Origin: an uncultured Anaerolineales bacterium
GTDB taxonomy: Bacteria; Chloroflexota; Anaerolineae; Anaerolineales; UBA11858
Reading direction: 5' to 3'
DNA: 43,072 nucleotides
NCBI GenBank assembly: GCA_964589145.1
Contig: CAZPSL010000129.1
Span: forward strand, 1-43,072
In this document: positions 22,579 to 37,316 of the stretch, piece by piece
Layout: every line of letters starts with the position of its first letter
Position numbering within the stretch: the stretch's first letter is position 1
Made by a program: the position numbers and the translations under genes
The notes under the pieces: generated by a model
Seen by the model: the letters and a program-made list of their open reading frames with translations, nothing else
Databases searched by the model: none
Told to the model about the DNA's origin: nothing

Positions 22579-22608
22579 TTGACGTCCGCGCGGCTTATGC
22601 AGTATAAT
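22579..22608 (+). promoter_or_regulatory. Sigma-70-like promoter candidate for the signalling cassette
   Basis: TTGACG (22579-22584), an 18-nt spacer, then TATAAT (22603-22608). It lies 39 nt upstream of the ATG at 22647, in an AT-richer gap. Confidence 0.5.
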
Positions 22609-22646: not shown

Positions 22647-23468
22647 ATGGCCTTAAAAGGTAACCTGCGCGATTTTACAATCACCCAATTGCTCAACCTG
22701 ATTAACCTTGCCCGTAAAACCGGCACGCTAATTATCGAAGGGCCAAACGATACTGCCTGGGTGTCTTTCAGAGAAGGGAAATTAGCCTACGCAAAAATGG
22801 GGAAAGAGGATAACAGTTTATCCACAATCCTTTACCGAGCAAAGAAAATTTCGCAGGCACAATACAAAATGATCCGAGCCAGAGCAGGCAATATGAGCGA
22901 CAAGGAATTAGGCCTGTTGCTGATTAATGCGAATTACATCACCCAGGAAGATATTCTCACCAGTCTGCAAACCGAGTATATTGGCGTTGTTCACCGGCTG
23001 TTTACCTGGGTGGAGGGATTGTTTCGCTTTGAAAACGGGATTCTTCCCCCGGATGATAAAATCACTCTGCGGATCAGCCTTGAGAACATCATCATCGAAG
23101 GTACGCGGCGACTGAGAGAATGGGAACAACTCCAGGATGAGATTCCCAGTCTGGAAATTGCCCTCAAGTTTACCGACCGCCCCGGCACCAATCTGCGCAA
23201 TGTCAATTTGAGCGTGGAAGAATGGCGGGTGGTTTCGTATATCAACCCGAAGAATTCCATCCGCCGGATTGCCAATACGACCAAAATGAACGATCTGGAA
23301 ATCCGCCGCATTGTATATGGACTGCTTCAGGCCGGTTTGGTGGAGATGGTACGGGTAGAGGGCGCTCCCGTACCCAAGCGCGGAAAGATTGCCGGCGTTA
23401 CTACAACCGACCCCGAAGAACAGAAATCGCTGGTCAACCGGCTTATTAACCGCATCCGTTCGATTTAG
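22647..23468 (+). CDS. DUF4388 domain protein
   Basis: 273-aa ORF. The N-terminus LKGNLRDFTITQLLNLINLARKTGTLIIEG...WVSFREGKLAYA matches the DUF4388 pattern (G.L.DF.L.DLLQ.L....KTG.L) as I recall it. Confidence 0.7.
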   Translation: MALKGNLRDFTITQLLNLINLARKTGTLIIEGPNDTAWVSFREGKLAYAKMGKEDNSLSTILYRAKKISQAQYKMIRARAGNMSDKELGLLLINANYITQEDILTSLQTEYIGVVHRLFTWVEGLFRFENGILPPDDKITLRISLENIIIEGTRRLREWEQLQDEIPSLEIALKFTDRPGTNLRNVNLSVEEWRVVSYINPKNSIRRIANTTKMNDLEIRRIVYGLLQAGLVEMVRVEGAPVPKRGKIAGVTTTDPEEQKSLVNRLINRIRSI

Positions 23469-23578
23469 AGCCTATCCGAAAAAATCCCTATATCTTCGGA
23501 CAGACACTTAACTAATTCCCTGCGAATTCATTCCGATTTATTTTCGGAGAAATCCAAATTCCCTGAGGATATGGCATT

Positions 23579-24118
23579 ATGCAAACAGTAAAAATGGTAA
23601 TCACCGGCCCCTTCAACTCTGGCAAGACTGAGTTTATTCAGACGGTCAGTGAAATTGACGTGGTAGCAACCGAGCGTCAGATCACATCCGAGGCTGAAAA
23701 AATCAAAGACACCACCACGGTGGCAATGGATTTTGGACGCATCACCGTCGATGAGGACCTGGTTCTCTACTTGTTTGGGACACCGGGGCAAAAACGCTTT
23801 GATTTCATGTGGGAAATTCTCTCCGAAGGGATGCTGGGCTTCATTGTCATGGTAGACAGCACCCGTCCGGAAACCTTCCGCGAAGCACGCAGCATTCTCG
23901 AAACCTTCCGGGCATACGCGCCAACTCCGTATGTGGTTGCAGCCAACAAGCAAGACCTGGAAGATGCCTGGGATATTGACGATATGCGTATTGCCCTGCG
24001 TCTCGACCCGAAATTGAAGTTTCTGCCCTGCATCGCCACCGACAAGGATTCCGTCAAAAATGTTTTGCTGGAACTGCTTTACAGCATTCTCGCCGAAATG
24101 GAAGCCGCCACATCGTGA
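23579..24118 (+). CDS. Small Ras-like GTPase of the conservon CvnD / MglA-related type
   Basis: 179-aa ORF. The P-loop is GPFNSGKT, the G3 motif is LYLFGTPGQ and the G4 motif is NKQD. The block TTTVAMDFGRITVDEDLVLYLFGTPGQKRFDFMW closely resembles actinobacterial CvnD-type ATP/GTP-binding proteins, from memory. Confidence 0.8.
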   Translation: MQTVKMVITGPFNSGKTEFIQTVSEIDVVATERQITSEAEKIKDTTTVAMDFGRITVDEDLVLYLFGTPGQKRFDFMWEILSEGMLGFIVMVDSTRPETFREARSILETFRAYAPTPYVVAANKQDLEDAWDIDDMRIALRLDPKLKFLPCIATDKDSVKNVLLELLYSILAEMEAATS

Positions 24119-24173
24119 CGCCGGCAACTCACAGCACTGCCTGCCAACCGCTATTTTCTAAAATTGCATTGTC

Positions 24174-24974
24174 GTGTCCTCAATTACCACCGACCAGGGA
24201 ATCGTTCATTACGAAGTCTACGGAAAGGGTCGCCCTGTAATCCTTCTGCATGGCTGGCTCGGCTCTTGGGGACTTTGGCAAGATACGATGGCCTATCTTG
24301 GCCGTTATTACCGGACATACGCGCTGGATTTTTGGGGGTTTGGTGAATCAGGGAAAAAACAGCCCACGTTTGCTGTACAAGATTTTGTCAGCATGGTTGA
24401 CCAATTTATGGAACGTCTGGGGATCATCCGCGCCCCGCTGGTCGGGCACAGCATGGGCGGGACGGTCAGCCTGCTGACCACACTGCAATACCCCGGCCGG
24501 GTAAGCAAAGTGGTGGTGATCGGGTCGCCCATTGTCGGCTCATCACTGGCCCTGCTGCTCAAACTGGCCGGTTACAGTTGGATTGCATCGCTGGTTTTTC
24601 ACACCATGTGGGGGCTGCGAGTCGGATTGCGCGTCAGTGCCCCTGCCATCTCCAAAAATCCTGAGTTCTACGGGATGATCGAGCGGGACCTCTCGCGGAC
24701 CACACTGGAATCTTTCTTTCTCAGCATCGCGTCCTTGCGCAAAACCGACCTTCGCCCCCTGCTACACGAAATCACCATCCCCACAATGGGGATGTACGGC
24801 GATAAAGATGTAATTGTCAACCCCAAACAACGGAATATCCTCAAAGCCGGCGTGCCACACGCACAAATTGCCCGCTTCCGAAATGCAGGGCATTTTATTA
24901 TGCTGGATAATCCCGAGGCCTTTCAGGAAACGCTCAAAAATTTCCTGGATCACAGCAGAATTCCCCTCCCATGA
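24174..24974 (+). CDS. Alpha/beta-fold hydrolase (intact GHSMG nucleophile elbow)
   Basis: 266-aa ORF with a GTG start. It has an HGW oxyanion region (ILLHGWLGSW), GHSMGG with the Ser codon at 24450-24452, an acid candidate GDKDVIV and a His in NAGHFIM. It is a paralogue of 36528-37316. Confidence 0.8.
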   Translation: MSSITTDQGIVHYEVYGKGRPVILLHGWLGSWGLWQDTMAYLGRYYRTYALDFWGFGESGKKQPTFAVQDFVSMVDQFMERLGIIRAPLVGHSMGGTVSLLTTLQYPGRVSKVVVIGSPIVGSSLALLLKLAGYSWIASLVFHTMWGLRVGLRVSAPAISKNPEFYGMIERDLSRTTLESFFLSIASLRKTDLRPLLHEITIPTMGMYGDKDVIVNPKQRNILKAGVPHAQIARFRNAGHFIMLDNPEAFQETLKNFLDHSRIPLP

Positions 24975-25600
24975 AAGCAGAACAAACCTGTAACTATTTT
25001 TACCCCAACAAAATGGGGCGAATTATTCTGCTGGCAATGGAGGAGATTTTAGGGAAGAACGGCATCAATGCGGTTTTGAACCACATCCACTTAACCAAGT
25101 GGATCAACAATTACCCGCCTAACAACCTGGATGCAGCCTTCCCGTTTACAGATTTAAGTCATATCCAAGTCGGGCTGGAGGAAATTTACGGGCCGCGCGG
25201 CGGGCAGGGGTTGGCTATGCGCATCGGGCAGGCAAGTTTCAAGTATGGGTTGCGCGAGTTTGGCCCAATGCTCGGCATCACCGATATCAACTTCCGGCTG
25301 CTTCCCCTGCCAACCAAGTTAAGCAAAGGGGCAGCCGTTTTTGCCAGCACCTTCAACAATTTCACAGACCAGCGAGTGCGCATTGAAGAAACCCCTAATG
25401 AAATACGCTGGCACATCGAGCGATGCCCGGTCTGCTGGGGTCGCCACACCGAACGCCCCAGTTGCAACCTTGCCGTAGGCATCCTGCAAGAGGCCCTTTA
25501 CTGGCTCAGCAACGGCAAATATTTCAACGTTCAGGAAACCGCATGCATTGCACAAGGCGACCCGGCCTGCACGATCGTCATTGAAAAAATTCCGGAATAA
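24971..25600 (+). CDS. V4R (4-vinyl reductase-like) small-molecule-binding domain protein
   Basis: 209-aa ORF whose ATG overlaps the upstream stop (ATGA). The C-terminal pattern RCPVCWGR...SCNLAVGILQEALYWLSNGKYFNVQETACIAQGDPACTIVI fits the Cys-rich V4R signature as I recall it. Confidence 0.6.
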   Translation: MKAEQTCNYFYPNKMGRIILLAMEEILGKNGINAVLNHIHLTKWINNYPPNNLDAAFPFTDLSHIQVGLEEIYGPRGGQGLAMRIGQASFKYGLREFGPMLGITDINFRLLPLPTKLSKGAAVFASTFNNFTDQRVRIEETPNEIRWHIERCPVCWGRHTERPSCNLAVGILQEALYWLSNGKYFNVQETACIAQGDPACTIVIEKIPE

Positions 25601-25708
25601 TCCGAACCGCAGCAGGAAATCTCACCACCAGGCCACCGCAGCATTTCGGTAACACCTCCGAAAAACACCTGCAAAACAGGCAACTGGTGACCACTCCGCA
25701 CTGACGCT

Positions 25709-27004
25709 ATGCTCAAAATCATTCTTTACGAGCCAAAACATATTTACCCCTTCAACGAACCGGCGCGGGACCTGCGTTTGCAAAACAAGCAACTCTGGCT
25801 GATTCAACGCGACGTTCTGGCACCTTATGCCGAAAAAGAACTGGAGATCTACCCAGGGCACAATCTTCCCGATATTCGCGAGGAGTGCATCGTTTTCCGC
25901 AACAATTTGTATTTTGACGAACCTTACATCGAGGCCTTCCTCACAGAAGCACGCAAGCGAAAAATCCCCAGCCGAGCGGCTTTTTCAATCCAGGATCCGG
26001 CTTTTCGGGAACACGCGTTACCCCTCTCTTCCTCCTACGTTCGAAAACCCGGCAAAACCCCGGAAGAGGACATTTACCTGGCCGATTTGTGGTACTACCC
26101 CTACGGCATCGAACCTGACGCCGAGCCATTGGTAATTGACCTGCTTTCGCGGGAGGCAGGCTACTACCATGTTCCGACCTACATGGCAACCGAGCAAGGC
26201 GACCTGGTTTTTCAGGTACCGCTGCGCAGCCTGATCGCCATCGATTCCTGGGTACACATCTTCATCACGGATGTCGTCTTCGGGCTGTTCTCGCGCGGCG
26301 CGCGCTTTGAAGACCGCCTGGAGAAGAACCCATTTTTCAAATTACAGGTACTGGCGCGGGCAATGTACGAGGGCAAGCAAGTGCTGGAATGTTCGGAGGT
26401 CGTGCGTATTGGGCGCAACTGCGTAATTGACCCCTCCGCCGTCATCCACGGGCCAACCACCATCGGAGACAACGTAACCATCGGAGCCGGTGCAGTTATC
26501 GAGAACTGCATCATTGGCGATAACTGCAATATCTCCCAAGGCTGTCAGTTGATGCTCTCCGTCGTCGGAGACGGAGCATTTTTACCCTTCCGCGCCTCCC
26601 TGTTTATGACAACCTTCATGGATAACAGCATGGTTGCCCAAAATACCTGCCTGCAAATGTGCGTGGTTGGGCGCAATACCTTCATCGGCGCAGGATCAAC
26701 GTTCACAGATTTCAACCTGCTCCCCGCCCGCCTGAAAGCCATTGACGGAAACGGAAATCTCTCAGATGCCAACCGCGAGGTTCTGGGAGGCTGCGTCGGG
26801 CACAATTGCCGCATCGGGTCAGGGATGGTCATCTTCCCCGCCCGCACCATCGAATCTGATGTCGTCCTGTTCGCTTCTCCCGAACGCCGGGTGATCACGA
26901 AAGATATCCGCTACGAAGACAGCGATCACCACAAACTTCGATTCTCTCATCTGCACCAGCGACTCCACCCCCGGCCAGGCGAAGCGGGAAACAACACCTG
27001 GTAA
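25709..27004 (+). CDS. Degenerate sugar-nucleotidyltransferase-like N-domain fused to a left-handed beta-helix (hexapeptide repeat) domain
   Basis: 431-aa ORF. The N-terminus MLKIILYEPKHIYPFNEPARDLRLQNKQLW resembles the glycine-loop-less NTP_transf_4-type fold. The C-terminal half has hexapeptide-like runs (IGRNCVIDPSAVIHGPTTIGDNVTIGAGAVIENCIIGDNCNISQGCQL...). Confidence 0.55.
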   Translation: MLKIILYEPKHIYPFNEPARDLRLQNKQLWLIQRDVLAPYAEKELEIYPGHNLPDIREECIVFRNNLYFDEPYIEAFLTEARKRKIPSRAAFSIQDPAFREHALPLSSSYVRKPGKTPEEDIYLADLWYYPYGIEPDAEPLVIDLLSREAGYYHVPTYMATEQGDLVFQVPLRSLIAIDSWVHIFITDVVFGLFSRGARFEDRLEKNPFFKLQVLARAMYEGKQVLECSEVVRIGRNCVIDPSAVIHGPTTIGDNVTIGAGAVIENCIIGDNCNISQGCQLMLSVVGDGAFLPFRASLFMTTFMDNSMVAQNTCLQMCVVGRNTFIGAGSTFTDFNLLPARLKAIDGNGNLSDANREVLGGCVGHNCRIGSGMVIFPARTIESDVVLFASPERRVITKDIRYEDSDHHKLRFSHLHQRLHPRPGEAGNNTW

Positions 27005-27007
27005 ATC

Positions 27008-28087
27008 GTGGATTCATTCGCCTTCATCATTCACCCCATTGACCCAAAACGAGATGTCAGCCGCAAATATCCTCTGCTGGGTCATTATCTCAGTGAGAGC
27101 ATTATCAATTTCGGCTCGACCTTCTTCCCCCCCGTTCTGCTCTCGGAAGTAGAGGGCATTACATCGCAAGCCACCGGGAAAGTACTTAAAGGCTGGTTAA
27201 TTGCATGTCCCCTTACTGCCGCACGTATGTTAGAATTAAATGAACGCATCGCCTATTACAAAATCATCCAAACCGGGCGTTTAGCCGAACGGCTCGGTGC
27301 GGACATTTTGGGGCTGGGTGCATTCACATCCGTTATTGGAGATGGCGGAATCACCATCGCCAATGCACTGGAAATCCCGGTTACCACGGGAGATGCGTAT
27401 ACCATCGCGGTTGCGGTACAGGCCGTCCGCGAGGCTGCCGCGTTAATGGAGATTGATTTTGCCCAAACCTCAGCCGCTATTGTCGGAGCCACCGGAGCCA
27501 TCGGGCGGGTTTGCGCTCAGTTGATGTGCCGTGAAGTTCCTGAACTGCACCTGCTTGGACGGGATAAAACCCGCCTGGAAGCGTTACGGGAAACCTTGCA
27601 GCCCCAAAGCCGCGCCCGCCTGGTAACCCACACCGACTTGCAGCAACTTCGGCAAAGCAAAGTTATCCTGACCGTATCCAGCGCATTGGATACCATTATC
27701 GAACCGGAGTTTTTACAGCCGGGCAGCGTAATTTGCGATGTCGCCCGCCCGCGGGACGTGGCCGCCAGCCTGGTTGACCAGCGCCGCGATGTGCTAGTTA
27801 TTGACGGCGGCATCGTTGATGTCCCCGGCCCGGTAAACTTCAACTTCGATTTTGGCTTCCCGCCCGGCAAAGCCTACGCCTGCATGGCCGAAACAATCGC
27901 CCTCGCCCTGGAAGGCCGGTTTGAAGATTACACCATCGGCAAAAACATTTCACTCCAGCGCGTAGAGGAAATTTCAAAAATTGCTCAAAAACACGGGTTC
28001 AAACTAAGCGGCTTCCGTTCTTTTGAACGCCCGGTTACCCTAGAGCAAATTGAAAAAATCAAAAACAATGCTAAACTACATTTATAA
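27008..28087 (+). CDS. Long-chain acyl-ACP reductase (cyanobacterial AAR)-like NAD(P)-dependent reductase
   Basis: 359-aa ORF with a GTG start 3 nt after the upstream stop. It is collinear with my recollection of Synechococcus AAR. [18 protein letters not shown] parallels [34 protein letters not shown] parallels [54 protein letters not shown] parallels [55 protein letters not shown] parallels FACFAEAMLLEFEG, which contains the catalytic Cys. Confidence 0.7.
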   Translation: [359 protein letters not shown]

Positions 28088-28144
28088 GGCAGGGCAATCC
28101 CCCTCCGCCCTGTACCCCCGTACTCCTAAACCTGGGAGGTTCCC

Positions 28145-29032
28145 ATGAGCAAAGCCCGATTACTAATTGTTGAAGACGACTTCGATATCTCCAACATGCT
28201 GCGCATCTACTTTACCGGGCAAGATTACGATGTGGATATCGCGCCCCGCGGCTCAGACGCGCTGGAGAAAACCCGCCAGCAACTCCCCCATCTGATTGTT
28301 CTGGACATTATGCTGCCAGATATTGACGGGTATGAGGTCTGCCGCCGCCTGCGGACGCAAACCCGCACCCGTCATATCCCGGTCATCTTTCTGACCCAGA
28401 AAGATGAGCGCAGCGACAAACTCCAGGGACTGGAATTGGGAGCAGATGACTACATCACCAAACCCTTTGATATCGAAGAACTCAAACTGCGCGTCCAGAA
28501 CGCCATTGCCCGTGCCGAGCGCGAAAGCCTCACCGACCCCCGCTCCGGGCTGCCCTCCGGGCGGCTGATTGAGGAGGAACTGCGCCGCGTCATCCGCACC
28601 GACGGCTGGGCACTGATGGACATCCGCATCAACCACTTCGGCCATTTCAAGGACGAATACGGCTTCGTGGCCGGCGACGACGTACTGCGTTCCACTGCCA
28701 TGACCATCAACGAAACCGTGGACGAATTCGGCACAACGGACGATTTCATCGGACACGCCGGCGAAGACAACTTCATCGTCATCACCACAGAAGAACACGC
28801 ACCGCAAATTCGCGCCGAAATAAAAAGGAGATTCGCCGAAGAAGTACCCACCCACTACAACTTCATGGACCGTGCCCAGGGATACATCACCATCACCAAC
28901 AAAGACGGTGAAACCGAAAACGTTCCACTGATGACCATCGGCATCGGCGTTGTCAGCCCCTCCGAATACCAGTTTGCAGATATTCGCGAAATCACCGAAC
29001 TGGCCGCCGAAGTCCGCCGAAAAGACGAGTAA
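28145..29032 (+). CDS. Response regulator: receiver domain plus degenerate GGDEF domain
   Basis: 295-aa ORF with an RBS gggagg. The REC domain has LLIVEDD...VLDIMLPDIDG...ITKPF. The C-terminal GGDEF-like fold has DPRSGLPSGR...FGHFKDEYGFVAGDDVL, but the signature reads GHAGEDNF instead of R.GGDEF. Confidence 0.8.
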   Translation: MSKARLLIVEDDFDISNMLRIYFTGQDYDVDIAPRGSDALEKTRQQLPHLIVLDIMLPDIDGYEVCRRLRTQTRTRHIPVIFLTQKDERSDKLQGLELGADDYITKPFDIEELKLRVQNAIARAERESLTDPRSGLPSGRLIEEELRRVIRTDGWALMDIRINHFGHFKDEYGFVAGDDVLRSTAMTINETVDEFGTTDDFIGHAGEDNFIVITTEEHAPQIRAEIKRRFAEEVPTHYNFMDRAQGYITITNKDGETENVPLMTIGIGVVSPSEYQFADIREITELAAEVRRKDE

Positions 29033-29067
29033 TTTTTGAAGTATCAGGAAACCAAAGGTAACGCGGC

Positions 29068-32000
29068 ATGTCTACAGTAGGATTGCTTCCCCTGGGGATT
29101 GTAATCACGCTCGTCGGGTTAACTTTTTTCCTGTTGACCTATTTCATCTTGCGCATCGTGCCAAAAATCCGCCCAACCGCCTCCACCCAAAAGAATCCCC
29201 CCATAATGCCAGACCTGCCTGCGCACAGCGATGCCATTTTAATGGTGCGCTATGGAGGGCAAGTTTCCTACCTCAACGAAGAGGCCCGCGAGTGGTTCAA
29301 CCTTTGGGAGGAGGAACCCAACCTGGAACGCATGGCACGCCAAACACGCCCATCGGAAACATTTTTGGGGCTTTGTGCCGCCGAAGGGCAGGGGCGATTC
29401 GCCATCAACGGCAAGTGGGTTAATGGCATTTCCTACACCCTGCCGGAGCAAGAGCACGGCTCCATACTGGTTTCCATGCACCTGCCGGAAACTGCCAGCC
29501 AACAAAAAGAAACCAACGGAATATCCAGCCAGGTGCTGGCAACCCTGTCCAAATTCAGCCACACCATGGTCGCCAACCTGAATTTGGAGACAATTCTGCA
29601 CTCAATTCTCAGCAGCGCAGAACAACTGGTACCTGCCGATTTTGCAGAAATCACCATCTGGGATCCAGAAAAGCAATGGCTGATCCCCTACCGCTTCTCC
29701 GGCATCCCCGGCATTGATTTGCACATAGAAAAAACCAGCGACCGCTATCCGCTCGGAGAAGGATACTCCGGCCATGTAGCAAAAACCCGCGAACCCCTGC
29801 TGATTTCAGATGTGGATGCAGAAATAAATTTGCGGCCGCTAATTGACATCAAAAAATATCCTTTCAAATCATACCTGGGCGCGCCCCTGCTGGTTGGGAA
29901 CAACCTGGCAGGCACGATTGAATTGATGTCTCAGGTTACCAACTCATTCTCCGAAAACGACCAGGAAATACTCAGCCTGCTCAGCAAACAAGCGGCCATT
30001 ATCCTGCACAACGCCCTGCTCTATCAAAAAGAACAACGCCGCTCCGAAGAACTGAACCGCCTCGCCAACCTGACACAGGATATCGGATCCATTCGCAACC
30101 CTCAGGATTTATACAAGCACCTGATAGAAGGCATTCTCCCCCTCATCAACGTCGAAATTATCGGCTTTCTGATCTACAACGAAAACACGAGGCAGTTAGA
30201 AGCCCAGCCGCCCTTTGTCGGTGTACCGCCCCAATTTGTGGATCTGTATAAAGTAACCATCCCAACCGGAAGCCCCGCAGAACATATCTGGCACCGGCAT
30301 GAAATTATTATCGCAGACAATGCCCTCGAAAACCCCTACCTGATTGATTTAGGGCTGGATCATCCAGCACGGGCAGCCGGCATCCGCGATACGCTCCTGA
30401 TTCCGCTTAGTTCCAGCGGACGGCCGCTGGGCTACTTGCAGGTCGCCAACAAAAAAGACCACAACAATTTCAGCCAAAGCGACATCCGCATCCTTTCCAT
30501 CATCGCCGGGCAGGCCGCACCAATCATCGAAAATGCCGACCTGATACGCCAATCGGTACACCGGGCATTGCGGGCAGAATCCCTGCGGCGCATTGCCAGC
30601 CTTTCCGGCTCATCCGCCAGCCTGGATGAAATCTTCAAATACACAATGGTCGAACTGGCGCGCCTGTTCAAAGCCGAGTACGCCGCAATCCTCCTGCTGG
30701 ATGAAAACATTGGCGAGTTGCGTGTTCACGCAGAATCAGTATACGGCCTCAGCCCCGAAAAAGCCGCGGCTTTGGGGCGGATTAACGCCAACGACCCCGA
30801 ATTCCGCAGGTCCGTCACACAAAACAAAGCGCCGCGCCTGATCAACAACGTTGATATTGAGACTGACATCCCCCCGATTTACCACCCGATGATTCGGCAG
30901 TTGACCGTAAAAGCCGTCCTGGCTGTGCCGGTAATCATCCGTGACCGTGGCATCGGAGAGATCATCCTGGCATCACCGGAGCCGGATGCCTTCACCCGCA
31001 GCGATATGCAACTCGCGGTGACGGTTGCCAGCCAACTATCGGTAGCAATCGAGCGCGCCTCCCTGGCCTCCCAAACCGACGTAGACCTGCGCCGCCGCGT
31101 AGAGCAGTTAACCGCGCTCACCCGCATCAGCCGCGAACTCAACACATCTGTCAACCTGGAACACCTGCTCCAGCGAGTTTACGAAGAATCCTTGCAGGCC
31201 ACCGGCGCCGATTGCGGCACAATTATGCTGTTTGAAGATTTATCCAGCACGCAGGATGAAACCCAACCCCTCACCGTGCTAATGTACTTTGGAGAAGAAC
31301 CGGGAGAATCTCCCCACCCGCTGGAACGCGAAACCGCCAAAACGGCCAGCCCGGTTCTCATTGCCGATTACAACCGAATCTCTCAGGACGAACCCACCGA
31401 AACACGCCTTCCACCCCATGCGGGCGTCCGCGCCTCCCTGATTGTCCCCATTGGATATCAGGAAGAAGTCGCCGGGCTGATACACCTGCACAGCCATACC
31501 CCCGAAAATTTCGGCACATCAGAACTGGAGATTGCACAAGCCCTGGCCGTCCAGGCCGCAATTGCCATCGGGAACGCCCAGCGCTACCAAGAACAAGTCC
31601 GCCGCACGGAACTGCTCAACCGCCAGGTAGAAACACTCTCCAATATGTTCGAGGTTGCCAAAAACCTGAACCTCGGACGCCCCATCGAAGAAACCCTGGA
31701 GGATATTGCCTACGCCATCCAATCCTCCACCCCCTTTGATGTAGTACTGTTCAGTGTTTACGACCAGAGCGACCAAATGCTGCACAGGATCACCAGCGCC
31801 GGGATTCCCCTGGCAAAAATGGAAGAGATCAAGTCCATTCCACAAACCTGGGAAAGCATCCAGCCATTAATGCAAGAACACCTGCGGTTTGGGCGCTCTT
31901 ACTACATTCCCTACGAGCAGCGGCCTGATACACCGGGCACTTCGCACATTGTAACCATTGACGAAAACGCCCCCGAAATCAGGCCAGACGACAACCGCTG

Positions 32001-35000
32001 GCACCCCAGAGATTTACTGATCATCCCGCTGACAACCGCCGACGGCCGCCCGCTGGGGCTGGTTAGCGTAGACAGCCCCAGAGACGGCCTGCGCCCCGAC
32101 ACCACCACAATTGAAACGCTGGAAATCTTCGCTGGGCAAGCCTCACTGGCAATCGAAAGCCAGCAGCAACTTCAGGGGCTGGAAACACAAATTCAGGCCC
32201 TCACCGAGGAACTGGAAGAAGCCCAAAAAGCCCAAAAACTACTCCCAGAAATTATCGCACAAAACCGCCAAAACAGCGCCGCACTGGAACGGCTGGAACA
32301 ATACATCCAGCGGGTTACGGCGGGGCTGATGATGATTGAAACAGCAAATCGGCAACCCGATAAGATTGCAGCGCTGACTGCACTGGGAAACGAATTGCGC
32401 ACCCGGTTCGGGCTGGATATCGCCCTGGCAACGGCAACCGCCCCTGATGGGGAACAAACCTTTCACACCTTTGGCGAAATTTCCGAAAAAGTAAATCCAG
32501 AGGCACTTTTCGGGCAGCGCAATCCGCTCCGCTACAGCCTGCAATCTGGGGAAATCCTGGTTGCAAACAACCTGGCCGAAAACGAAAACTGGCAGCAATC
32601 GCCGCTGCTGGCTGCCCTGGAAGCCCAGGCATTTATCGCACTGCCGGTTCTTTCCACAGGGAAAGTTGAAGGTGCCATTCTGGGCATCAGCAAGCAGGTT
32701 CTGCCGCCCTTCCACGAAGAAGACCACCGGTTCTTCGAACTGCTGGTGCGGCAAATCGGCGCAGCAGTTACCAACCTGAACCTGCTTGCCGAAACCAGGC
32801 AGCGGCTGCAAGAAGTAAACATCCTGCTAGATTTTAGCCAGAAACTGGGCGGGCTGCAACCTGCGCGCATTCTGGAAACACTGCTCGACAACGCCTTTGA
32901 AGTCGTGCAGCAGACAAACACCGGCATCGTTTTACTTTGGGATATGGACAGCGACACCCTGCGCCCGAAATCCACCCGGGGCTACGCCGACCCGGATGCC
33001 ATTCTGCGGGTCGCCTTCAGCCCAACAGCAGGGGTTCCCGGAGAGGTCTTCACACAGGGGAAGGCGGTAAACCTTGGAGAGGTGGATTTCACACAAGATT
33101 ACAGCCTGGTGCTGGACAACCTGCTCAATTACCGGGATGCCACAGGCGGAAAACTGCCGCTCTCCGCACTGATGGTGCCCATCCGTGCCGGAGAAAAATC
33201 CCTGGGAGTCATCGTTCTGGAAAACTTCGAGGCCAGCGCCGCCTTTGACGCGGACGACCAGGCGATGATCGAATCAATCGCCCGCCAGACCGCGCTAACG
33301 CTGGAAAACGTGCGTCTATACCAGTCATCCGAAGAGCGTGCCGCCCAACTGCAAGCCCTGAGCGAAGTTGCCGCCACAATCACATCCCGCCTGGAACCGG
33401 AGGCACTGATCGACTCCCTGCTCGACTCCCTGGCACCTGTAGTCCCTTACAACACCGGTACACTCTGGCTGCGAGAAAAAGATACACTCACCATTCAGTC
33501 GGCGCGCGGCTTTGAAAACAGTGATGACCTGGTAGGCATCACAACGCAGGTAGAAGACAGCCATCTGTTCTACGAAATGATTCAAACCCGCCAGCCGATT
33601 GCCGTGCAAGATGTACGCAACGATAACCGCTTCCCCGACACAGCCATCGAACGCCTTTCCTGGCTGGGCGTTCCGCTGCTCGCGAAGGATGAGGTAATCG
33701 GGGTGATTGCACTTGAAAAAACAGAGCCTGAATTTTACACCCCGGAGTTGATCCGCTCGGCAACCACCTTTGCCAGCCAGGCCGCCGTCGCCCTGGAAAA
33801 TGCCGTTTTGTACCAGCAAAGTTTGCAGCGCACCAAAGAACTGGACAAACGCAGCCAGCGGCTCACTCTGATCAACCGATTCTCCAACCGGATTAGCCGC
33901 TCGCTGGATTTCGACACCCTGCTCACCGTCACCATCGAGGAATTGCAGCAGGCCATCCCCGGAACAACCATCTCGGTAGTCATGCTGGAAGACGGCAACC
34001 ACGTTATGCTGCGCGCAGAAACGCTGCCGCAGGATGAGGAAAACAGCCCGCCGCAAGCCCTATCCTATGCACCGGTTTTTGATTACCTGCAAGAATCGCG
34101 CGGGACATTCAGTTCCCAAGACGTCAGCCGGGAAACCCAATTGGAACCCATTCGGGAACACCTTGCACGGCACAACACCCAGGCACTACTGATACTGCCG
34201 CTTTCTGTAGGAGATGAATTCTTTGGCTTCACCCTGGTTCACTCACCCGAACAGCGGCGTTTCACGCCGGAAGAGGTTGAACTGGGGCGTATTTTGACCA
34301 ACCAGGCAGCAGTCTCCATACAAAATGCAACCCTGTTTGTTGAAACCCGCCGTCTGACCGAGGAGTTAGAGCAGCGCGTCGCCGAACGCACCGAAGAACT
34401 CGGCCGCGAGCACCGCCGCCTACAGACCTTGCTGCGCATTATGCAGGAACTCTCGGCCAGCCTCGACCTGGATCATGTGCTCAACCGCACGCTGGCATTG
34501 CTCAATGAAACCACCGGAGCAGAGCAAAGCACTATCCTGCTGGTACGACCCGATGAGAGCACTTTTTACTATCGGGCATCTCTGGGCTACACCGATCCGC
34601 CGCCAATCGGCGGGCAGCCCTCGTCCATCCCGCTGGGAGAGGGGCTGGCAGGATGGATTGTCAAGCACGGCGAAGGCGTATTGATTGACAATTTGCAGGA
34701 CGACCCGCGCTGGGTTACCCCACCGAATGGAAAAACCGAACATCGCAGCGTACTTGCCGCCCCGCTGCTGGTTGGCGCAGAAGCCCTGGGCGCAATGCTG
34801 CTCTACAGCCGCACACCGGGCGCATTTTCACCCGAACAGCGCGAACTGGTACAAGCCGCCGCCAACCAAATTGCCATTGCCATCAACAACAACGAACTGT
34901 TTACCCTGATCCGCGAACAGGCCGAGAGTTTGGGCAGCATGTTACGTCAACAGCAGGTGGAAGCCAGCCGTTCGCGGGCTATTCTGGAAGCAGTCGCAGA

Positions 35001-36087
35001 TGGTGTGCTGGTTACAGATAGCGAAAACGTTATTACACTGTTCAACGAATCGGCACAGCAAATTCTTGACCTGGAACGCGACGCCGTAGTCGGCCACTCG
35101 CTCGATACTTTCACTGGGCTCTTCGGCAGCGCAGCACACGATTGGATGGAGACAATCCAGCAATGGACGCAAGACCCCGTATCCTTCGAAGATGGCGCCA
35201 CCTATGCCGAACGGATTACCCTCGATAACAAGCGGGTCGTTTCCATCCACCTCGCGCCGGTAAGCATGCAAAACGAATTTCTGGGCACAGTCTCGATTTT
35301 CCGGGATATTACCCATCAAGTTGAAGTTGACCGGCTCAAATCCGAATTTGTCGCGACGGTCAGTCACGAACTGCGAACACCCATGACCTCCATCAAGGGG
35401 TACGTAGAAGTCTTGCTGATGGGAGCCGCCGGTCCGCTCAACGACCAGCAAACCTCTTTCCTCAAGGTTGTGCAAACCAACACCGAACGGCTTAACATTC
35501 TGGTCAATGACCTGCTGGATGTTTCCCGTATCGAAGCCGGAAAAGTCACACTCACCATTCAAATGCTGGACTTAAACGAGATTGCCAGTGAAGTTGTACA
35601 AGAACAGCAGCGGCAGGCCGAGGAAGATGACAAACCGATGACAATCAACATTGAGGTGGAACCCGACTTGCCGCACGTTCCCGGCGACCCGGAACGCATC
35701 CACCAGATTTTCGCCAACCTGGTCAGCAACGCTTACCATTACACCCCTGCCGGAGGCCAAATTGACATCCGCCTGCACCAGGTTGACGATGAAGTTCAGA
35801 TCGACGTTGCAGACAACGGCATCGGTATTTCCCCGGAAGAGAAAAAACGCATTTTTGAACGTTTCTACCGGGGAGAAGACCCGCTGGTGCTGGCAACCCC
35901 CGGCAACGGGCTGGGGCTTTCCATCACCAAACAACTGATCGAGATGCACCACGGACGCATCTGGATGGAAAGCGATGGAATTCCTGGCGCGGGGTCAGTC
36001 TTTCATGTTGCCCTGCCTCTACAAACCGCCAATCAGGAATCCGACGCCCCCGAATCCCAGGATTCCAGCACAGACATCCTGTATTAG
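29068..36087 (+). CDS. Membrane-anchored sensor histidine kinase with ten tandem GAF-like domains, a PAS domain, HisKA and HATPase_c (2339 aa)
   Basis: The N-terminus has a hydrophobic segment (LLPLGIVITLVGLTFFLLTYFILRIV). The end-of-GAF helix motif (A.Q.A.AI.NA.L) recurs ten times. It is followed by a PAS-like block (ILEAVADGVLVTDSENVITLFNESAQQIL). The H-box is VSHELRTPMTSIKGY, with the His codon at 35365-35367. The N-box is FANLVSNAYHYT, G1 is DNGIGI and G2 is GNGLGL. Confidence 0.9.
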   Translation: MSTVGLLPLGIVITLVGLTFFLLTYFILRIVPKIRPTASTQKNPPIMPDLPAHSDAILMVRYGGQVSYLNEEAREWFNLWEEEPNLERMARQTRPSETFLGLCAAEGQGRFAINGKWVNGISYTLPEQEHGSILVSMHLPETASQQKETNGISSQVLATLSKFSHTMVANLNLETILHSILSSAEQLVPADFAEITIWDPEKQWLIPYRFSGIPGIDLHIEKTSDRYPLGEGYSGHVAKTREPLLISDVDAEINLRPLIDIKKYPFKSYLGAPLLVGNNLAGTIELMSQVTNSFSENDQEILSLLSKQAAIILHNALLYQKEQRRSEELNRLANLTQDIGSIRNPQDLYKHLIEGILPLINVEIIGFLIYNENTRQLEAQPPFVGVPPQFVDLYKVTIPTGSPAEHIWHRHEIIIADNALENPYLIDLGLDHPARAAGIRDTLLIPLSSSGRPLGYLQVANKKDHNNFSQSDIRILSIIAGQAAPIIENADLIRQSVHRALRAESLRRIASLSGSSASLDEIFKYTMVELARLFKAEYAAILLLDENIGELRVHAESVYGLSPEKAAALGRINANDPEFRRSVTQNKAPRLINNVDIETDIPPIYHPMIRQLTVKAVLAVPVIIRDRGIGEIILASPEPDAFTRSDMQLAVTVASQLSVAIERASLASQTDVDLRRRVEQLTALTRISRELNTSVNLEHLLQRVYEESLQATGADCGTIMLFEDLSSTQDETQPLTVLMYFGEEPGESPHPLERETAKTASPVLIADYNRISQDEPTETRLPPHAGVRASLIVPIGYQEEVAGLIHLHSHTPENFGTSELEIAQALAVQAAIAIGNAQRYQEQVRRTELLNRQVETLSNMFEVAKNLNLGRPIEETLEDIAYAIQSSTPFDVVLFSVYDQSDQMLHRITSAGIPLAKMEEIKSIPQTWESIQPLMQEHLRFGRSYYIPYEQRPDTPGTSHIVTIDENAPEIRPDDNRWHPRDLLIIPLTTADGRPLGLVSVDSPRDGLRPDTTTIETLEIFAGQASLAIESQQQLQGLETQIQALTEELEEAQKAQKLLPEIIAQNRQNSAALERLEQYIQRVTAGLMMIETANRQPDKIAALTALGNELRTRFGLDIALATATAPDGEQTFHTFGEISEKVNPEALFGQRNPLRYSLQSGEILVANNLAENENWQQSPLLAALEAQAFIALPVLSTGKVEGAILGISKQVLPPFHEEDHRFFELLVRQIGAAVTNLNLLAETRQRLQEVNILLDFSQKLGGLQPARILETLLDNAFEVVQQTNTGIVLLWDMDSDTLRPKSTRGYADPDAILRVAFSPTAGVPGEVFTQGKAVNLGEVDFTQDYSLVLDNLLNYRDATGGKLPLSALMVPIRAGEKSLGVIVLENFEASAAFDADDQAMIESIARQTALTLENVRLYQSSEERAAQLQALSEVAATITSRLEPEALIDSLLDSLAPVVPYNTGTLWLREKDTLTIQSARGFENSDDLVGITTQVEDSHLFYEMIQTRQPIAVQDVRNDNRFPDTAIERLSWLGVPLLAKDEVIGVIALEKTEPEFYTPELIRSATTFASQAAVALENAVLYQQSLQRTKELDKRSQRLTLINRFSNRISRSLDFDTLLTVTIEELQQAIPGTTISVVMLEDGNHVMLRAETLPQDEENSPPQALSYAPVFDYLQESRGTFSSQDVSRETQLEPIREHLARHNTQALLILPLSVGDEFFGFTLVHSPEQRRFTPEEVELGRILTNQAAVSIQNATLFVETRRLTEELEQRVAERTEELGREHRRLQTLLRIMQELSASLDLDHVLNRTLALLNETTGAEQSTILLVRPDESTFYYRASLGYTDPPPIGGQPSSIPLGEGLAGWIVKHGEGVLIDNLQDDPRWVTPPNGKTEHRSVLAAPLLVGAEALGAMLLYSRTPGAFSPEQRELVQAAANQIAIAINNNELFTLIREQAESLGSMLRQQQVEASRSRAILEAVADGVLVTDSENVITLFNESAQQILDLERDAVVGHSLDTFTGLFGSAAHDWMETIQQWTQDPVSFEDGATYAERITLDNKRVVSIHLAPVSMQNEFLGTVSIFRDITHQVEVDRLKSEFVATVSHELRTPMTSIKGYVEVLLMGAAGPLNDQQTSFLKVVQTNTERLNILVNDLLDVSRIEAGKVTLTIQMLDLNEIASEVVQEQQRQAEEDDKPMTINIEVEPDLPHVPGDPERIHQIFANLVSNAYHYTPAGGQIDIRLHQVDDEVQIDVADNGIGISPEEKKRIFERFYRGEDPLVLATPGNGLGLSITKQLIEMHHGRIWMESDGIPGAGSVFHVALPLQTANQESDAPESQDSSTDILY

Positions 36088-36096
36088 AGGTAACTT

Positions 36097-36480
36097 ATGG
36101 CAAAAATCCTAATTGCAGAAGATGAACCCGACATTCGCAATCTGATCACATTCACGCTGCGATTCGCCGGGCACGAGGTAATTGACACCCCCAACGGTTA
36201 TGAAGCCTACCAGAAAGCCCAGGAAATGGCTGCACAGGGCGACCTGCCTGATCTGATTATGATGGACGTGCGGATGCCGCGCATGACCGGTTACGAAGCC
36301 TGCGCACAAATGAAAAAAATCGATTCTCTCAAAGATGTACCGGTCGCGTTTCTCTCTGCCAAAGGACAGGAATCCGAAATTCAAACCGGGCTGGACCTAG
36401 GCGCAGTGGCATACATCATCAAACCATTTGCCCCCGATCAGTTAACCGCTAAAGTAGATGAGTTAATTGGGAACAAATAA
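36097..36480 (+). CDS. Single-domain CheY-like response regulator
   Basis: 127-aa ORF 9 nt after the kinase stop. Motifs are ILIAEDE, MMDVRMPRMTG and IIKPF. Confidence 0.85.
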   Translation: MAKILIAEDEPDIRNLITFTLRFAGHEVIDTPNGYEAYQKAQEMAAQGDLPDLIMMDVRMPRMTGYEACAQMKKIDSLKDVPVAFLSAKGQESEIQTGLDLGAVAYIIKPFAPDQLTAKVDELIGNK

Positions 36481-36527
36481 TACCCGCCAGCAGCAATTCG
36501 GCTGCTGCTGGCTGAACCTCACCACCG

Positions 36528-37316
36528 ATGAGCGCTATCATTCTTCAGGATGAAATCGTCCATTACGAAGTACTCGGACGCGGCCGCCCGTTGATCTTCA
36601 TCCACGGGTGGGTTGGGTCGTGGCGATACTGGATTCCATCCATGCAAGCCGCCTCGACCAATTTCCGCGCCTACGCGCTTGACCTGTGGGGATTCGGCGA
36701 CACCGCCAAAGAGCCCAGCAAATACCTGATTGAACAACAAACCACCCTGCTCGACGACTTCCTCTTCGAAATGGGGATCGGGAAAATCGCCATTGCCGGG
36801 CACGGGCTGGGCGCAATTGTAGCCCTGATGTTCGCCAAAGAAAACCCCAAATTCGTAGACCGGGTGATGGCAATTTGCCTGCCATTCAACAGCAACGCCA
36901 TCAACCCCCGCCTGAAACAAGCCCAGCCCGCAGAACTGGCTGACTGGCTGCTGGGCGATACCCCGGACGCCCAGGCCGCCCGCGTAGAAGCCGCCAAAGC
37001 CGACCAGGATGCAATTCTACGCTCCATTCACAACCTGCAAAATATCGAAATCACCCAATTGGCTGCCAGCATCAGAATCCCCTCCCTGCTGGTTTTCGGA
37101 CAAAATGACCCGGCCGTCAGTCCGGCAGATAATGAAAACCTCGCCAATTTGCCGGAACATGTTCACTACATCACCTTTGACAATTCCGGCCACTTTCCAA
37201 TGATTGACGAGGTCAACAAATTCAATCGCCTGATGATCGACTTTCTCAACCTGCCCTCTGGAGAAAGCCCCCGCCAACTGCAACTCAAAGAAGAGTGGAA
37301 ACGGCGCATCCGCTAA
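36528..37316 (+). CDS. Alpha/beta-fold protein, paralogue of 24174-24974, lacking the nucleophile Ser (GHGLG)
   Basis: 262-aa ORF. IVHYEVLGRGRPLIFIHGWVGSW...YALDLWGFGDTAK parallels IVHYEVYGKGRPVILLHGWLGSW...YALDFWGFGESGK. The nucleophile-elbow position reads GHGLGA, with Gly codon ggg at 36804-36806. The Asp and His candidates (GQNDPAV, NSGHFPM) are retained. Confidence 0.8.
   Translation: MSAIILQDEIVHYEVLGRGRPLIFIHGWVGSWRYWIPSMQAASTNFRAYALDLWGFGDTAKEPSKYLIEQQTTLLDDFLFEMGIGKIAIAGHGLGAIVALMFAKENPKFVDRVMAICLPFNSNAINPRLKQAQPAELADWLLGDTPDAQAARVEAAKADQDAILRSIHNLQNIEITQLAASIRIPSLLVFGQNDPAVSPADNENLANLPEHVHYITFDNSGHFPMIDEVNKFNRLMIDFLNLPSGESPRQLQLKEEWKRRIR

Follow-up and report, generated by a model that had tools for sequence, protein, structure and literature searches.

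An acyl-ACP reductase-like protein of Anaerolineales retains the catalytic residues of its family and is encoded in a conserved gene block with a two-component system

Comparison of sequence and predicted structure confirmed that the gene product studied here is a genuine relative of the reductase of the cyanobacterial alkane pathway, acyl-ACP reductase (AAR), with its catalytic residues intact. The match is far beyond chance: each of 83 orthologous loci carries the key motifs. The protein is not an AAR orthologue, and we consider it reasonably probable that it is catalytically competent, reducing thioesters to aldehydes with NAD(P)H by way of a Cys, and that it is functionally coupled to a signalling module.

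The Anaerolineales are abundant filamentous bacteria of wastewater sludge, sediments and the subsurface, and studies of their conserved gene modules are very few. The window analysed here is a 43,072-nucleotide stretch of DNA from an uncultured member of this order (contig CAZPSL010000129.1, assembly GCA_964589145.1). The original prediction, made from the letters alone, was of an AAR-like reductase that lacks a partner aldehyde-deformylating oxygenase (ADO) and may serve a purpose other than alkane synthesis. Features are listed in Table 1.

Table 1. Genes and sequence elements of the reductase block, with positions in the window.
Feature	Position	Strand	Basis and conservation
Best sigma-70-like promoter match in the region, TTGACG-18-TATAAT (11/12), 5' of the block	22579..22608	+	Consensus agreement alone, which does not demonstrate function
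PATAN (PatA_N/DUF4388) protein, accessory, first gene of the block	22647..23468	+	Pfam DUF4388 2.8e-25; 56/64 loci
MglA/Ras-like small GTPase, accessory	23579..24118	+	Pfam ATP_bind_1/Ras, TIGR00231; 61/70 loci
α/β hydrolase abH1, intact GHSMGG nucleophile elbow, accessory	24174..24974	+	Pfam/NCBIfam; 64/73 loci
V4R-domain protein, hydrophobic-ligand-binding fold, Cys-rich motif, accessory	24971..25600	+	Pfam V4R 1.4e-11; 55/74 loci
LbH partner, 431 aa: degenerate sugar-nucleotidyltransferase-like N-domain and LbH (hexapeptide) C-domain	25709..27004	+	Pfam, Foldseek
Predicted AAR/PigE/TamH-superfamily (COG5322) thioester reductase, 359 aa, GTG start	27008..28087	+	phmmer, AF2, Foldseek
Thr126-Thr127-Gly128 junction motif (AAR T128-T129-G130; TAD T2042-T2043-G2044)	27383..27391	+	Residue mapping
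Dinucleotide-binding loop GATGAIG, residues 160-166 (AAR 162-GATGDIG-168)	27485..27505	+	Alignment, motif conservation
Cys292 codon (catalytic Cys294 of AAR, Cys296 of PigE)	27881..27883	+	Alignment
Response regulator: REC and degenerate GGDEF (GEDNF here, GGDNF in orthologues)	28145..29032	+	Pfam; 79/79 loci
Histidine kinase, 2,339 aa: N-terminal hydrophobic segment, ~10 GAF, PAS, HisKA, HATPase_c	29068..36087	+	Pfam
Stand-alone receiver (REC) protein	36097..36480	+	Pfam; 62/62 loci
α/β-hydrolase-fold protein abH2, no nucleophile Ser (GHGLG; orthologues G or D)	36528..37316	+	Pfam; 58/58 loci

Results

The reductase shares the fold and catalytic residues of AAR

The product had been described as collinear with cyanobacterial AAR, and the alignments bore this out. 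In a blastp comparison with the S. elongatus enzyme (reference sequence identical to 6JZU_A), residues 4–332 aligned with AAR residues 2–335 at 27.8% identity over 349 columns (E = 1.2e-30). Searching the PDB with phmmer returned AAR (6JZQ) at E = 1.8e-25, with the Cys blocks aligned, and PigE (4PPM) at E = 4e-38. The AlphaFold (AF2) model of the reductase (pLDDT 89) adopts the three-domain AAR fold, with Foldseek matches to 6JZY, 6JZU and 6JZQ at TM scores of 0.75–0.81 (E = 1e-20 to 1e-22). Full-domain homology, the Cys, the TTG motif and the Gly-rich loop place the protein in the AAR/PigE/TamH/TAD superfamily (COG5322); more than 7,900 homologues were recovered by sequence search. Family members carry the label 'predicted amino acid dehydrogenase' at JGI, which is the COG5322 label.

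The glycine-rich loop and the Cys-containing block that had been noticed earlier are both retained, the latter as residues 290–303 (nt 27875–27916). VGA[TS]GxxG, VTTGD and [YF]ACMAET each occurred in 83/83 orthologous loci. Among 36 diverse relatives the Cys was kept in 32, and the loop glycines G160, G163 and G166 in 36, 31 and 34, respectively. The role of the TTG junction motif has been described (bioRxiv 10.1101/2024.10.28.620694). By residue mapping, R185, R189 and K312 correspond to R189, R193 and R314 of AAR, the basic pocket for the NADPH 2'-phosphate or CoA 3'-phosphate (residue roles in AAR from PMC7089970). In 31 close orthologues the three positions were R in 30, K or R in 23, and K or R in 30. 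Because this phosphate pocket is kept, NADPH is favoured as the predicted cofactor, a preference read from three residues only; TamH uses NADH.

The reductase is distinct from AAR, and no ADO gene accompanies it

The protein is not an AAR orthologue: it scored 110.4 bits against the AAR equivalog model TIGR04058 (EC 1.2.1.80), the cut-off of which is 449.7, and the ADO-docking loop is missing. This AAR-specific loop, which contains the docking residue R118, was absent from the reductase, from PigE and from 36 relatives. The docking helix (AAR R73–H91) has a net charge of +2 in the reductase compared to +5 in AAR. In a crude neighbor-joining tree, built by a simple distance method with no support values and suited to gross placement only, AAR lay on a long, separate branch, and PigE-N clustered with transaminase fusions, apart from the clade of the reductase.

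The reported lack of an ADO-like gene in the window was upheld: no scanned window ORF matched Pfam Ald_deCOase, and tblastn with a verified ADO (2OC5) gave only noise there (E > 1). Nor did an ADO gene lie close to the reductase gene in related loci. When the window was searched by tblastn together with 87 related loci (88 sequences, 1.56 Mb, including 83 orthologous loci with up to 10 kb on each side, less on short contigs), nothing was found at E ≤ 1e-3. The loss of the docking elements and the lack of ADO in these loci support the earlier suggestion of a use other than alkane synthesis.

PigE and TamH are the nearest characterised relatives

Among solved structures and NCBIfam models, the best sequence match was the N-domain of PigE (4PPM) from the MAP pathway of prodigiosin, at 33.6% identity. 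The PigE model NF053554 gave 215.9 bits, below its cut-off of 850, and only positions 2–355 of its 837 were matched. Both PigE and TamH are characterised enzymes that convert carrier-bound thioesters to aldehydes (PMC8341465, PMC9594044), and for the TR domain of TamH the conversion of acyl-ACP to aldehyde is experimentally supported (PMC9594044). Sequence comparison thus places the reductase closer to the PigE/TamH thioester-reductase domains than to AAR, with these domains as its nearest characterised relatives, so an AAR homologue that works without ADO already has a precedent. The COG5322 literature that we found concerns transaminase fusions. In the literature searched, no paper joined acyl-ACP reductase with Anaerolineae. 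Class-III aminotransferase (Aminotran_3) was absent from the window ORFs and from 83 Anaerolineales-type loci.

The second-best structural match was the TAD of CarI from carmabin (9E4U; TM 0.73, E = 1e-16, Foldseek). A Pfam scan of the window ORFs showed no NRPS or PKS context and the reductase stands alone, so the NRPS setting of the TAD is not reproduced here.

Public names for the relatives include 'shikimate dehydrogenase' and 'predicted amino acid dehydrogenase'. Pfam Shikimate_DH (PF01488) did match at 33.5 bits (cut-off 24.3), over the Rossmann domain only (residues 148–256). The NCBIfam shikimate dehydrogenase equivalog scored 19.5 bits against a cut-off of 295, and the glutamyl-tRNA reductase model TIGR01035 scored 27 bits against 209.6, again in the Rossmann region only. 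Foldseek gave TM scores of about 0.35–0.49 for AroE, at most 0.47 for Leu-DH and ~0.3 for GluTR. A GluTR-like reductase was ruled out on its TIGR01035 score and TM value. The protein therefore did not fall into another dehydrogenase family, a doubt attached to the original prediction.

The clade is widespread and its relatives occur in lipid and regulatory contexts

The reductase forms a tight, separate clade of its own across Anaerolineales. It was found in at least 563 Chloroflexota species genomes at 63–69% identity, which indicates purifying selection; labels of the best 80 matching loci were almost all Anaerolineales/Anaerolineae or Chloroflexota. In sister clades at 45–48% identity, the gene occurs in Aminotran_3–SRPBCC–reductase operons, and Aminotran_3 is present in Atribacterota-type relatives. 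Other contexts in sister clades were lipid-related or hydrophobic: SRPBCC fusions or neighbours, an adjoining ACP gene, and a phasin/patatin/Fe-ADH/DAGAT-type cluster. In yet another clade, a [PilZ-]SRPBCC-reductase is directly followed by a 7TM-GAF histidine kinase (3 cases), an independent recurrence of the reductase–kinase pairing, and the PilZ fusions represent regulatory wiring in a sister clade. Fusion relatives of ~700 aa have N-terminal extensions of ~300 aa; these showed no similarity to the cluster neighbours and contained no Pfam domain.

The reductase belongs to an invariant six-gene core

The reductase is one of six core genes that were never apart in the loci examined, the others encoding a GlmU/GMPPB-like LβH protein, a REC-degenerate GGDEF protein, a multi-GAF histidine kinase, a REC protein and an α/β-hydrolase without the nucleophile Ser. 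The response regulator and the giant kinase, directly 3' of the reductase, are its most consistently conserved neighbours; the N part of the kinase was present in 77/77 loci and the C part in 65/65. On the 5' side, the LbH gene directly preceded the reductase in all 76 loci with enough flank, and in the window only 3 nt (ATC) separate it from the reductase GTG. Upstream of this core, most loci also carry the PATAN, small GTPase, hydrolase and V4R genes, and the genes outside the block vary between genomes. The neighbours named previously (hexapeptide protein, V4R protein and α/β hydrolase) agree with the coordinates and the Pfam matches.

All block genes are on one strand with short intergenic gaps, and we found no convincing plus-strand terminator between them. 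An Rfam scan of the window revealed no regulatory RNA, and PADLOC assigned no defence system, with generic receiver-domain matches only. No ACP, acyl-activating enzyme or aldehyde consumer (ADO, transaminase or alcohol dehydrogenase) is encoded in the block. The V4R gene overlaps abH1 by 4 nt; its product has a CPxCW...C..C motif conserved in orthologues, and its sequence matches in the PDB were marginal (MJ1460 and PoxR).

The LbH partner matched Hexapep/LbH_EIF2B/GMPPB_C in Pfam and no family model at cut-off. Its structural matches in Foldseek were ST0452, GMPPA/B, VTC1 and RmlA, the LbH part of the model being of moderate quality only. In place of the GxGTR nucleotide-binding loop there is a conserved PFNEPARDLRxQNKPLW segment, so the partner looks as much like the non-catalytic GMPPA/eIF2B type as like the GlmU enzymes. 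With this architecture and a degenerate nucleotide loop, acyl transfer by the LbH protein is a putative function only.

Discussion

By homology, we propose that Cys292 would take over an acyl group from its phosphopantetheine carrier (acyl-ACP or possibly acyl-CoA), and that NAD(P)H in the GATGAIG loop would then reduce the resulting enzyme thioester, with release of an aldehyde. Together, the reductase and the LbH protein may produce a hydrophobic aldehyde of lipid origin, or modify one, and this chemistry would be functionally coupled to the signalling module. Such coupling could run in either direction: the product may be a ligand for the V4R protein, the pseudo-hydrolase or the GAF sensors, or the enzyme pair may be a regulated output. 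Conserved synteny says nothing about this direction. Given the invariant two-component context, a signal or a regulated output is more likely than the synthesis of wax or alcohol in bulk. The homology, the fold, the retained motifs, the lack of ADO and transaminase genes in the loci searched and the conserved gene order are observed, and from these we infer the activity, the putative substrate and product, and any direction of coupling.

Several other readings have to be weighed against aldehyde formation coupled to signalling. If the ADO gene lay elsewhere in the genome, the locus could belong to an ordinary alkane pathway of the cyanobacterial type, and the fold and catalytic residues, which are those of AAR, would fit. 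We regard this as very improbable in view of the low TIGR04058 score, the long separate branch of AAR, the deleted R118 loop, the weakly charged docking helix and the lack of ADO in the loci searched. The hosts, moreover, are Chloroflexota, and ADO is not known outside cyanobacteria. Less improbable, but still unlikely, is a pathway of the PigE/TamH/KecF type, in which the aldehyde would pass to a class-III transaminase encoded elsewhere to yield a fatty amine. The closest characterised relatives, PigE-N and the TamH-type fusions, point this way, as do the Aminotran_3 operons of the sister clades; against it, Aminotran_3 is missing from the window and from the 83 Anaerolineales-type loci, the invariant neighbour is the LbH protein, and PigE-N groups with the transaminase fusions instead. 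The dehydrogenase names given in public annotations are hardly credible as functions. They draw on a Pfam score above cut-off that covers the Rossmann domain only, while the TM scores to AroE, Leu-DH and GluTR are low compared to those for AAR, and the Cys and TTG are of the AAR type; the extent of the Pfam match, the phmmer results and the structural matches in effect refute a shikimate or amino-acid dehydrogenase.

The remaining alternatives concern what happens at Cys292. The acyl-Cys292 might be resolved by a nucleophile in a non-reductive, TAD-like reaction (amidation or acyl transfer, in which the LbH protein may take part), with the nicotinamide in another role. A non-reductive reaction has been proposed for the carmabin TAD, although its reaction is not yet settled (bioRxiv 10.1101/2024.10.28.620694). 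The structural match to this domain, the common Cys and TTG, and the acyltransferase-like LbH partner fixed next door give this reading some weight, slightly more than the fatty-amine pathway, yet we doubt it, as sequence and structure are nearer to AAR and PigE, which are both reductases, the basic phosphate pocket of AAR is kept, and NRPS/PKS context is missing. Since abH2 and the GGDEF domain are degenerate enzymes, the reductase too could have been recruited for ligand binding and not for catalysis; as a sensor or regulatory subunit, it would bind NAD(P)H or an acyl-thioester and inform the kinase of redox or lipid status. Its tight embedding in a two-component operon and the PilZ fusions of the sister clade are in line with such a role. 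Unlike its degenerate neighbours, however, the reductase keeps every catalytic element in 83/83 loci, and the experimentally supported relatives (AAR, PigE and TamH) are thioester reductases, the TAD reaction being unsettled; we consider a purely sensory role unlikely, about on a par with the fatty-amine pathway.

Beyond the proposed thioester reductase activity, a more elaborate picture can be offered as speculation that we hold rather doubtful. The block may be an Anaerolineales-wide lipid-aldehyde signalling module, in which the LbH protein and the reductase would make a hydrophobic, aldehyde-derived messenger from acyl-ACP that is bound by V4R, abH2 or the GAF array of the kinase, and a REC/degenerate-GGDEF phosphorelay would control the polarity machinery (PATAN and the MglA-like GTPase) of these filamentous bacteria. 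In such a module abH2 would be a receptor, by analogy with RsbQ and D14. The PilZ-SRPBCC-reductase and 7TM-GAF-kinase pairs would be a second version of this principle, in which an enzyme of the AAR family serves signal transduction as a dedicated component.

The block occurs in at least 563 species-level genomes, none of its members is characterised, and the names that they bear in public records are either wrong or say nothing ("shikimate dehydrogenase", "multidrug transporter"). If the reductase is hard-wired to the two-component system, uses of the AAR family extend beyond alkane, pigment and amine biosynthesis; if shown, this would open a way into a conserved signalling pathway of a phylum that is little understood. 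The annotation "fatty aldehyde-generating acyl-ACP reductase" outside cyanobacteria is not evidence for alkane production.

Compared to known systems, the reductase resembles cyanobacterial AAR (S. elongatus orf1594; 6JZQ/6JZU/6JZY; TIGR04058) in collinearity, fold, GxTGxIG loop, TTG, Cys and basic pocket. It differs in its modest identity, in lacking the R118 loop and the M279 insertion, in a far less basic docking helix, and in having no ADO, another phylum and fixed neighbours of its own, the LbH protein and the two-component system. With the PigE N-domain it has the CMAET Cys block in common, and neither works with ADO; PigE carries a fused class-III aminotransferase and is encoded in a pigment cluster, whereas the reductase is a stand-alone protein of a different clade with no transaminase gene in its vicinity. 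The TamH and KecF fusions of tambjamine and koreenceine biosynthesis contain the same COG5322 reductase domain, and homologous fusion architectures occur among the relatives of the reductase. TamH and KecF are, however, transaminase fusions, with NADH dependence in TamH and a dedicated adenylation-ACP partner, none of which is seen at the reductase locus. The CarI TAD has the two-lobed fold, the invariant Cys beside the nicotinamide and the TTG, all as in the reductase, but it forms the C-terminal domain of NRPS modules, owes its NAD specificity to an Asp, has a dimeric N-domain and is only 19% identical in the structural alignment. For the LbH partner, the arrangement of a nucleotidyltransferase-like N-fold followed by a left-handed beta-helix is that of GlmU, ST0452, GMPPB-GMPPA and eIF2B-epsilon.

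AAR-superfamily assignment and conserved residues

The original prediction had placed an AAR-like reductase at 27008-28087. This open reading frame was recovered exactly (+ strand, GTG start, 359 aa), together with the two motifs attributed to it, GATGAIG (residues 160-166) and a 14-residue Cys-containing block (residues 290-303). The proposed collinearity with cyanobacterial acyl-ACP reductase (AAR) was borne out by blastp against S. elongatus AAR (reference sequence identical to PDB 6JZU_A; 27.8% identity over 349 columns, query 4-332 against AAR 2-335, E 1e-30) and by phmmer against PDB sequences, in which the Cys blocks of the two proteins were aligned (E 1.8e-25). The Pfam match, Shikimate_DH, covered the Rossmann part only (residues 148-256, 33.5 bits), which accounts for its annotation in public databases as "shikimate dehydrogenase" or "predicted amino acid dehydrogenase". 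The top NCBIfam model was PigE (216 bits, cut-off 850), matched at positions 2-355 of 837, the reductase half only, and the second was the AAR equivalog TIGR04058 (110 bits, cut-off 449.7). Both scores fell under their cut-offs, so the reductase belongs to neither equivalog family.

An AlphaFold2 model built on 31 orthologues was confident (pLDDT 89, pTM 0.89) and matched AAR crystal structures with TM 0.75-0.81 (E 1e-20 to 1e-22) and the carmabin "terminal amidation domain" (TAD; 9E4U) with TM 0.73, whereas methylene-H4MPT dehydrogenase, Leu/Trp dehydrogenases, GluTR and AroE reached at most 0.49. Membership of a different dehydrogenase family in which the Cys is not aligned, the alternative raised with the original prediction, is therefore not borne out: the AAR fold is upheld by profile and structure comparison alike, and the Cys aligns with that of AAR.

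The window protein and 36 diverse relatives were compared with AAR position by position, using the residue roles assigned in publications on the structure of AAR (PMC7089970) and on TAD (preprint 10.1101/2024.10.28.620694). The AAR loop that carries R118 is deleted in the window protein, in PigE and in 36/36 relatives. The motifs [YF]ACMAET, VGA[TS]GxxG and VTTGD were each present in all 83 orthologous loci. Judged from these alignments, strong purifying selection acts on the catalytic apparatus, and the interface for ADO, the alkane-forming partner of AAR, is not present. The protein is very likely a catalytically competent thioester reductase of the AAR superfamily.

Functional positions of AAR and their counterparts in the window protein
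Role	AAR	Window protein
Catalytic Cys	C294	C292
Junction motif	T128-T129-G130	T126-T127-G128
Dinucleotide loop	G162/G165/G168	G160/G163/G166
NADPH 2'-phosphate / CoA 3'-phosphate pocket	R189, R193, R314	R185, R189, K312
ADO docking	R118	absent (AAR-specific loop)
Acyl tunnel	M279	absent (second AAR-specific insertion)
ADO-docking helix (AAR residues 73-91), net charge	+5	+2

Searches for ADO and aminotransferase partners

The original prediction held that the window encodes no ADO-like gene, and both searches agreed. The ADO Pfam family had no match among window ORFs, and tblastn with Prochlorococcus ADO (verified against 2OC5) gave only noise in the window. With the same query, none of 88 sequences (1.56 Mb in total) had a hit at E<=1e-3; these were the window, the 83 orthologous loci, each with as much flank as its contig allowed up to 10 kb on either side, and 4 of the more distant loci. 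A class-III aminotransferase, the partner of PigE, TamH and KecF (PMC8341465, PMC9594044, PMC6498172), occurred neither in the window nor in any Anaerolineales-type locus. We consider it highly likely that the reductase is not ADO-coupled.

A conserved ten-gene block

Gene context was the most informative result of the analysis. Ten window genes share one strand and are spaced -4 to 110 nt apart, and the predicted neighbours of the reductase were all found among them: the hexapeptide-repeat (LbH) protein ends 3 nt ahead of the reductase GTG, with the V4R protein and an alpha/beta hydrolase further upstream. The region's best promoter-like match (11/12 to consensus) is directly 5' of the first block gene, and no convincing + strand terminator was found between block genes. 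Presence was counted across the 83 orthologous loci, using for each gene only those with sufficient flank. Genes flanking the block vary among genomes; DHFR and LarC are 5' of it in the window only, and ThyA is 3' of it in just two other loci. This indicates that selection preserves the block, not the neighbourhood.

Coordinates of window features and relatives' loci; block genes are listed 5' to 3'
Feature	Position	Presence in loci	Class
Polysaccharide-type genes	1-11565
23S-rRNA-intervening-sequence-family protein	8443-8856 (-)
AIR-carboxylase-family protein and PF01969 protein	19821-21931
DHFR, longest ORF	21655-22437
Ten-gene block	22647-37316 (+)
PATAN		56/64	accessory
Small GTPase		61/70	accessory
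Alpha/beta hydrolase 1		64/73	accessory
V4R		55/74	accessory
LbH protein	25709-27004	76/76	core
LbH protein, nucleotidyltransferase-like N-half	25709-26400
Reductase	27008-28087		core
REC-GGDEF	28145-29032	79/79	core
Kinase		N part 77/77, C part 65/65	core
Second REC		62/62	core
Alpha/beta hydrolase 2	36528-37316	58/58	core
HAD-aminotransferase-SRPBCC-reductase operon, L084	7468-11381
HAD-aminotransferase-SRPBCC-reductase operon, L086	1273-4069
694-aa fusion and neighbours, L087	195-10924
Reductase-kinase pair, L088	715-5189
Reductase-kinase pair, L090	201-2923

The LbH protein is more conserved than the reductase (best 120 homologues 72-92% identical), and its homologues carry uninformative database names ("multidrug transporter", "isoleucine patch"). 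Its AF2 model was moderate overall (pLDDT 68) with a good N-domain, and matched enzymes that combine a sugar-1-phosphate nucleotidyltransferase with LbH (ST0452, GMPPA/GMPPB, VTC1, RmlA) at E 4e-5 to 1e-3 with low TM, the LbH segment aligning at the GlmU position. A strongly conserved PFNEPARDLRxQNKPLW segment in the N-half takes the place of the GxGTR nucleotide loop. The protein could act as an acyltransferase or a nucleotidyltransferase, or serve as a non-catalytic scaffold in the manner of GMPPA/eIF2B.

Hydrolase 1 has an intact nucleophile elbow (GHSMGG). Hydrolase 2 has GHGLG where GxSxG is expected, and its orthologues have Gly, or in some Asp, but never Ser, at the nucleophile position; the Asp and His positions are apparently retained. 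A role as pseudo-enzyme or receptor is possible, as is, in some species, that of an Asp-nucleophile enzyme. The REC-GGDEF protein reads GEDNF in the window and GGDNF in ~70/80 orthologues, with an intact receiver Asp region and no obvious RxxD I-site; conventional motif criteria make diguanylate cyclase activity improbable. The histidine kinase, of the multi-GAF/PAS type, has 2,339 aa. Ligands of V4R/TRAPPC3-fold proteins are hydrophobic (PoxR, phenols; TRAPPC3, palmitate; PMC10933270), and the pairing of PATAN with an adjacent MglA-type GTPase has been described (PMC4316618). PADLOC assigned no defence system.

The block has 49-56% GC (GC3 0.54-0.69) and the genes just 5' of it (19821-22437; LarB-like, LarC, DHFR) 64-68% (GC3 0.72-0.83). 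With its lower G+C and its position between folA (DHFR) and thyA, the block may have been acquired or inserted relatively recently, or the contig may be chimeric. The AIR-carboxylase-family protein, which has an N-terminal extension, adjoins the nickel-insertion protein, as would be expected of LarB/LarC, which make the nickel-pincer cofactor. The longest DHFR ORF (260 aa, GTG 21655) overlaps the LarC gene end; as its Pfam match starts only at residue 95, translation probably begins near 21928. The polysaccharide-type genes, in the first quarter of the window, encode a NeuB-family synthase, a capsule-synthesis-like protein, a Wzt-type ABC ATPase and an NAD-dependent epimerase.

Distribution and relatives in other lineages

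The reductase had >7,900 homologues at E<=1e-5, of which the best 120 were at least 65% identical; the organism-named entries among these were all Anaerolineae/Chloroflexota metagenome-assembled genomes. In GTDB contigs (one genome per species), at least 563 stretches code for a relative, and the best 80 (63-69% identity) were labelled almost entirely Anaerolineales, Anaerolineae or Chloroflexota. One of these loci (L027, JBLNAU010000486.1; 66% identity) has a typical Anaerolineales block and comes from a bin named Syntrophothermus sp.; mis-binning is the likely explanation, rather than transfer to Firmicutes. Among clusters represented at 50% identity, an exhaustive HMMER search recovered 3,299 at E<=1e-3, with 838 reaching E<=1e-30, and multidomain proteins were numerous; Pfam-detected fusion partners were Aminotran_3, AMP-binding, SRPBCC and PilZ. 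In a rough neighbour-joining tree, the window protein fell within a tight Anaerolineales clade, cyanobacterial AAR formed a long separate branch, PigE-N clustered with transaminase fusions, and another clade held SRPBCC/PilZ fusions.

An Atribacterota relative (48% identity) and one from another lineage (45%) lie in operons of class-III aminotransferase, SRPBCC and reductase, in some preceded by HAD. PigE and TamH fuse aminotransferase and reductase, whereas these operons have the same fatty-amine logic in separate genes; their hosts are not known for fatty-amine products. A 694-aa Chloroflexota fusion (L087) joins a ~300-aa N-domain without assignment to an AAR-like domain and is named 'serine carboxypeptidase' by NCBI. 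Its neighbours (phasin, two patatins, SCP2, Fe-alcohol dehydrogenase, epimerase-family reductase, PlsC/DAGAT-type acyltransferase) suggest a wax-ester or storage-lipid pathway. In a separate clade (38-42% identical), a translationally coupled 7TM-GAF histidine kinase follows directly with a 4-nt overlap in three cases (L088, L090 and one further locus), the reductase being part of a PilZ-SRPBCC-reductase fusion or accompanied by SRPBCC; in one case, an ACP gene and receivers lie there as well. GAF histidine kinases are therefore associated with two separate clades of the family, and, from the relatives' contexts, the acyl substrates of the family are consistently carrier-bound and hydrophobic.

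Proposed function and comparison with known systems

By homology, an acyl group would pass from phosphopantetheine (on ACP, perhaps CoA) to Cys292, NAD(P)H would donate a hydride and an aldehyde would be released. The next step of this aldehyde cannot be ADO-type deformylation nor, within the block, transamination. We propose that the LbH-reductase pair may produce or alter a lipid-derived aldehyde and be functionally coupled to the neighbouring two-component system; such coupling of the reductase with the signalling genes is somewhat favoured. The V4R, pseudo-hydrolase or GAF proteins could sense the product as a ligand; alternatively, the pair could be the regulated output. The specific reading as a signal synthase seems unlikely.

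A literature search found no publication on the reductase clade or the block. The enzyme chemistry is unsurprising; the module is well-defined, widespread and entirely uncharacterised. AAR-family reductases without ADO are not new, having precedents in PigE, TamH, KecF and TAD. New here are a distinct order-wide clade of such reductases, its fixed partner with GlmU/GMPPB-like architecture and its invariant link to a two-component system with many degenerate enzyme domains.
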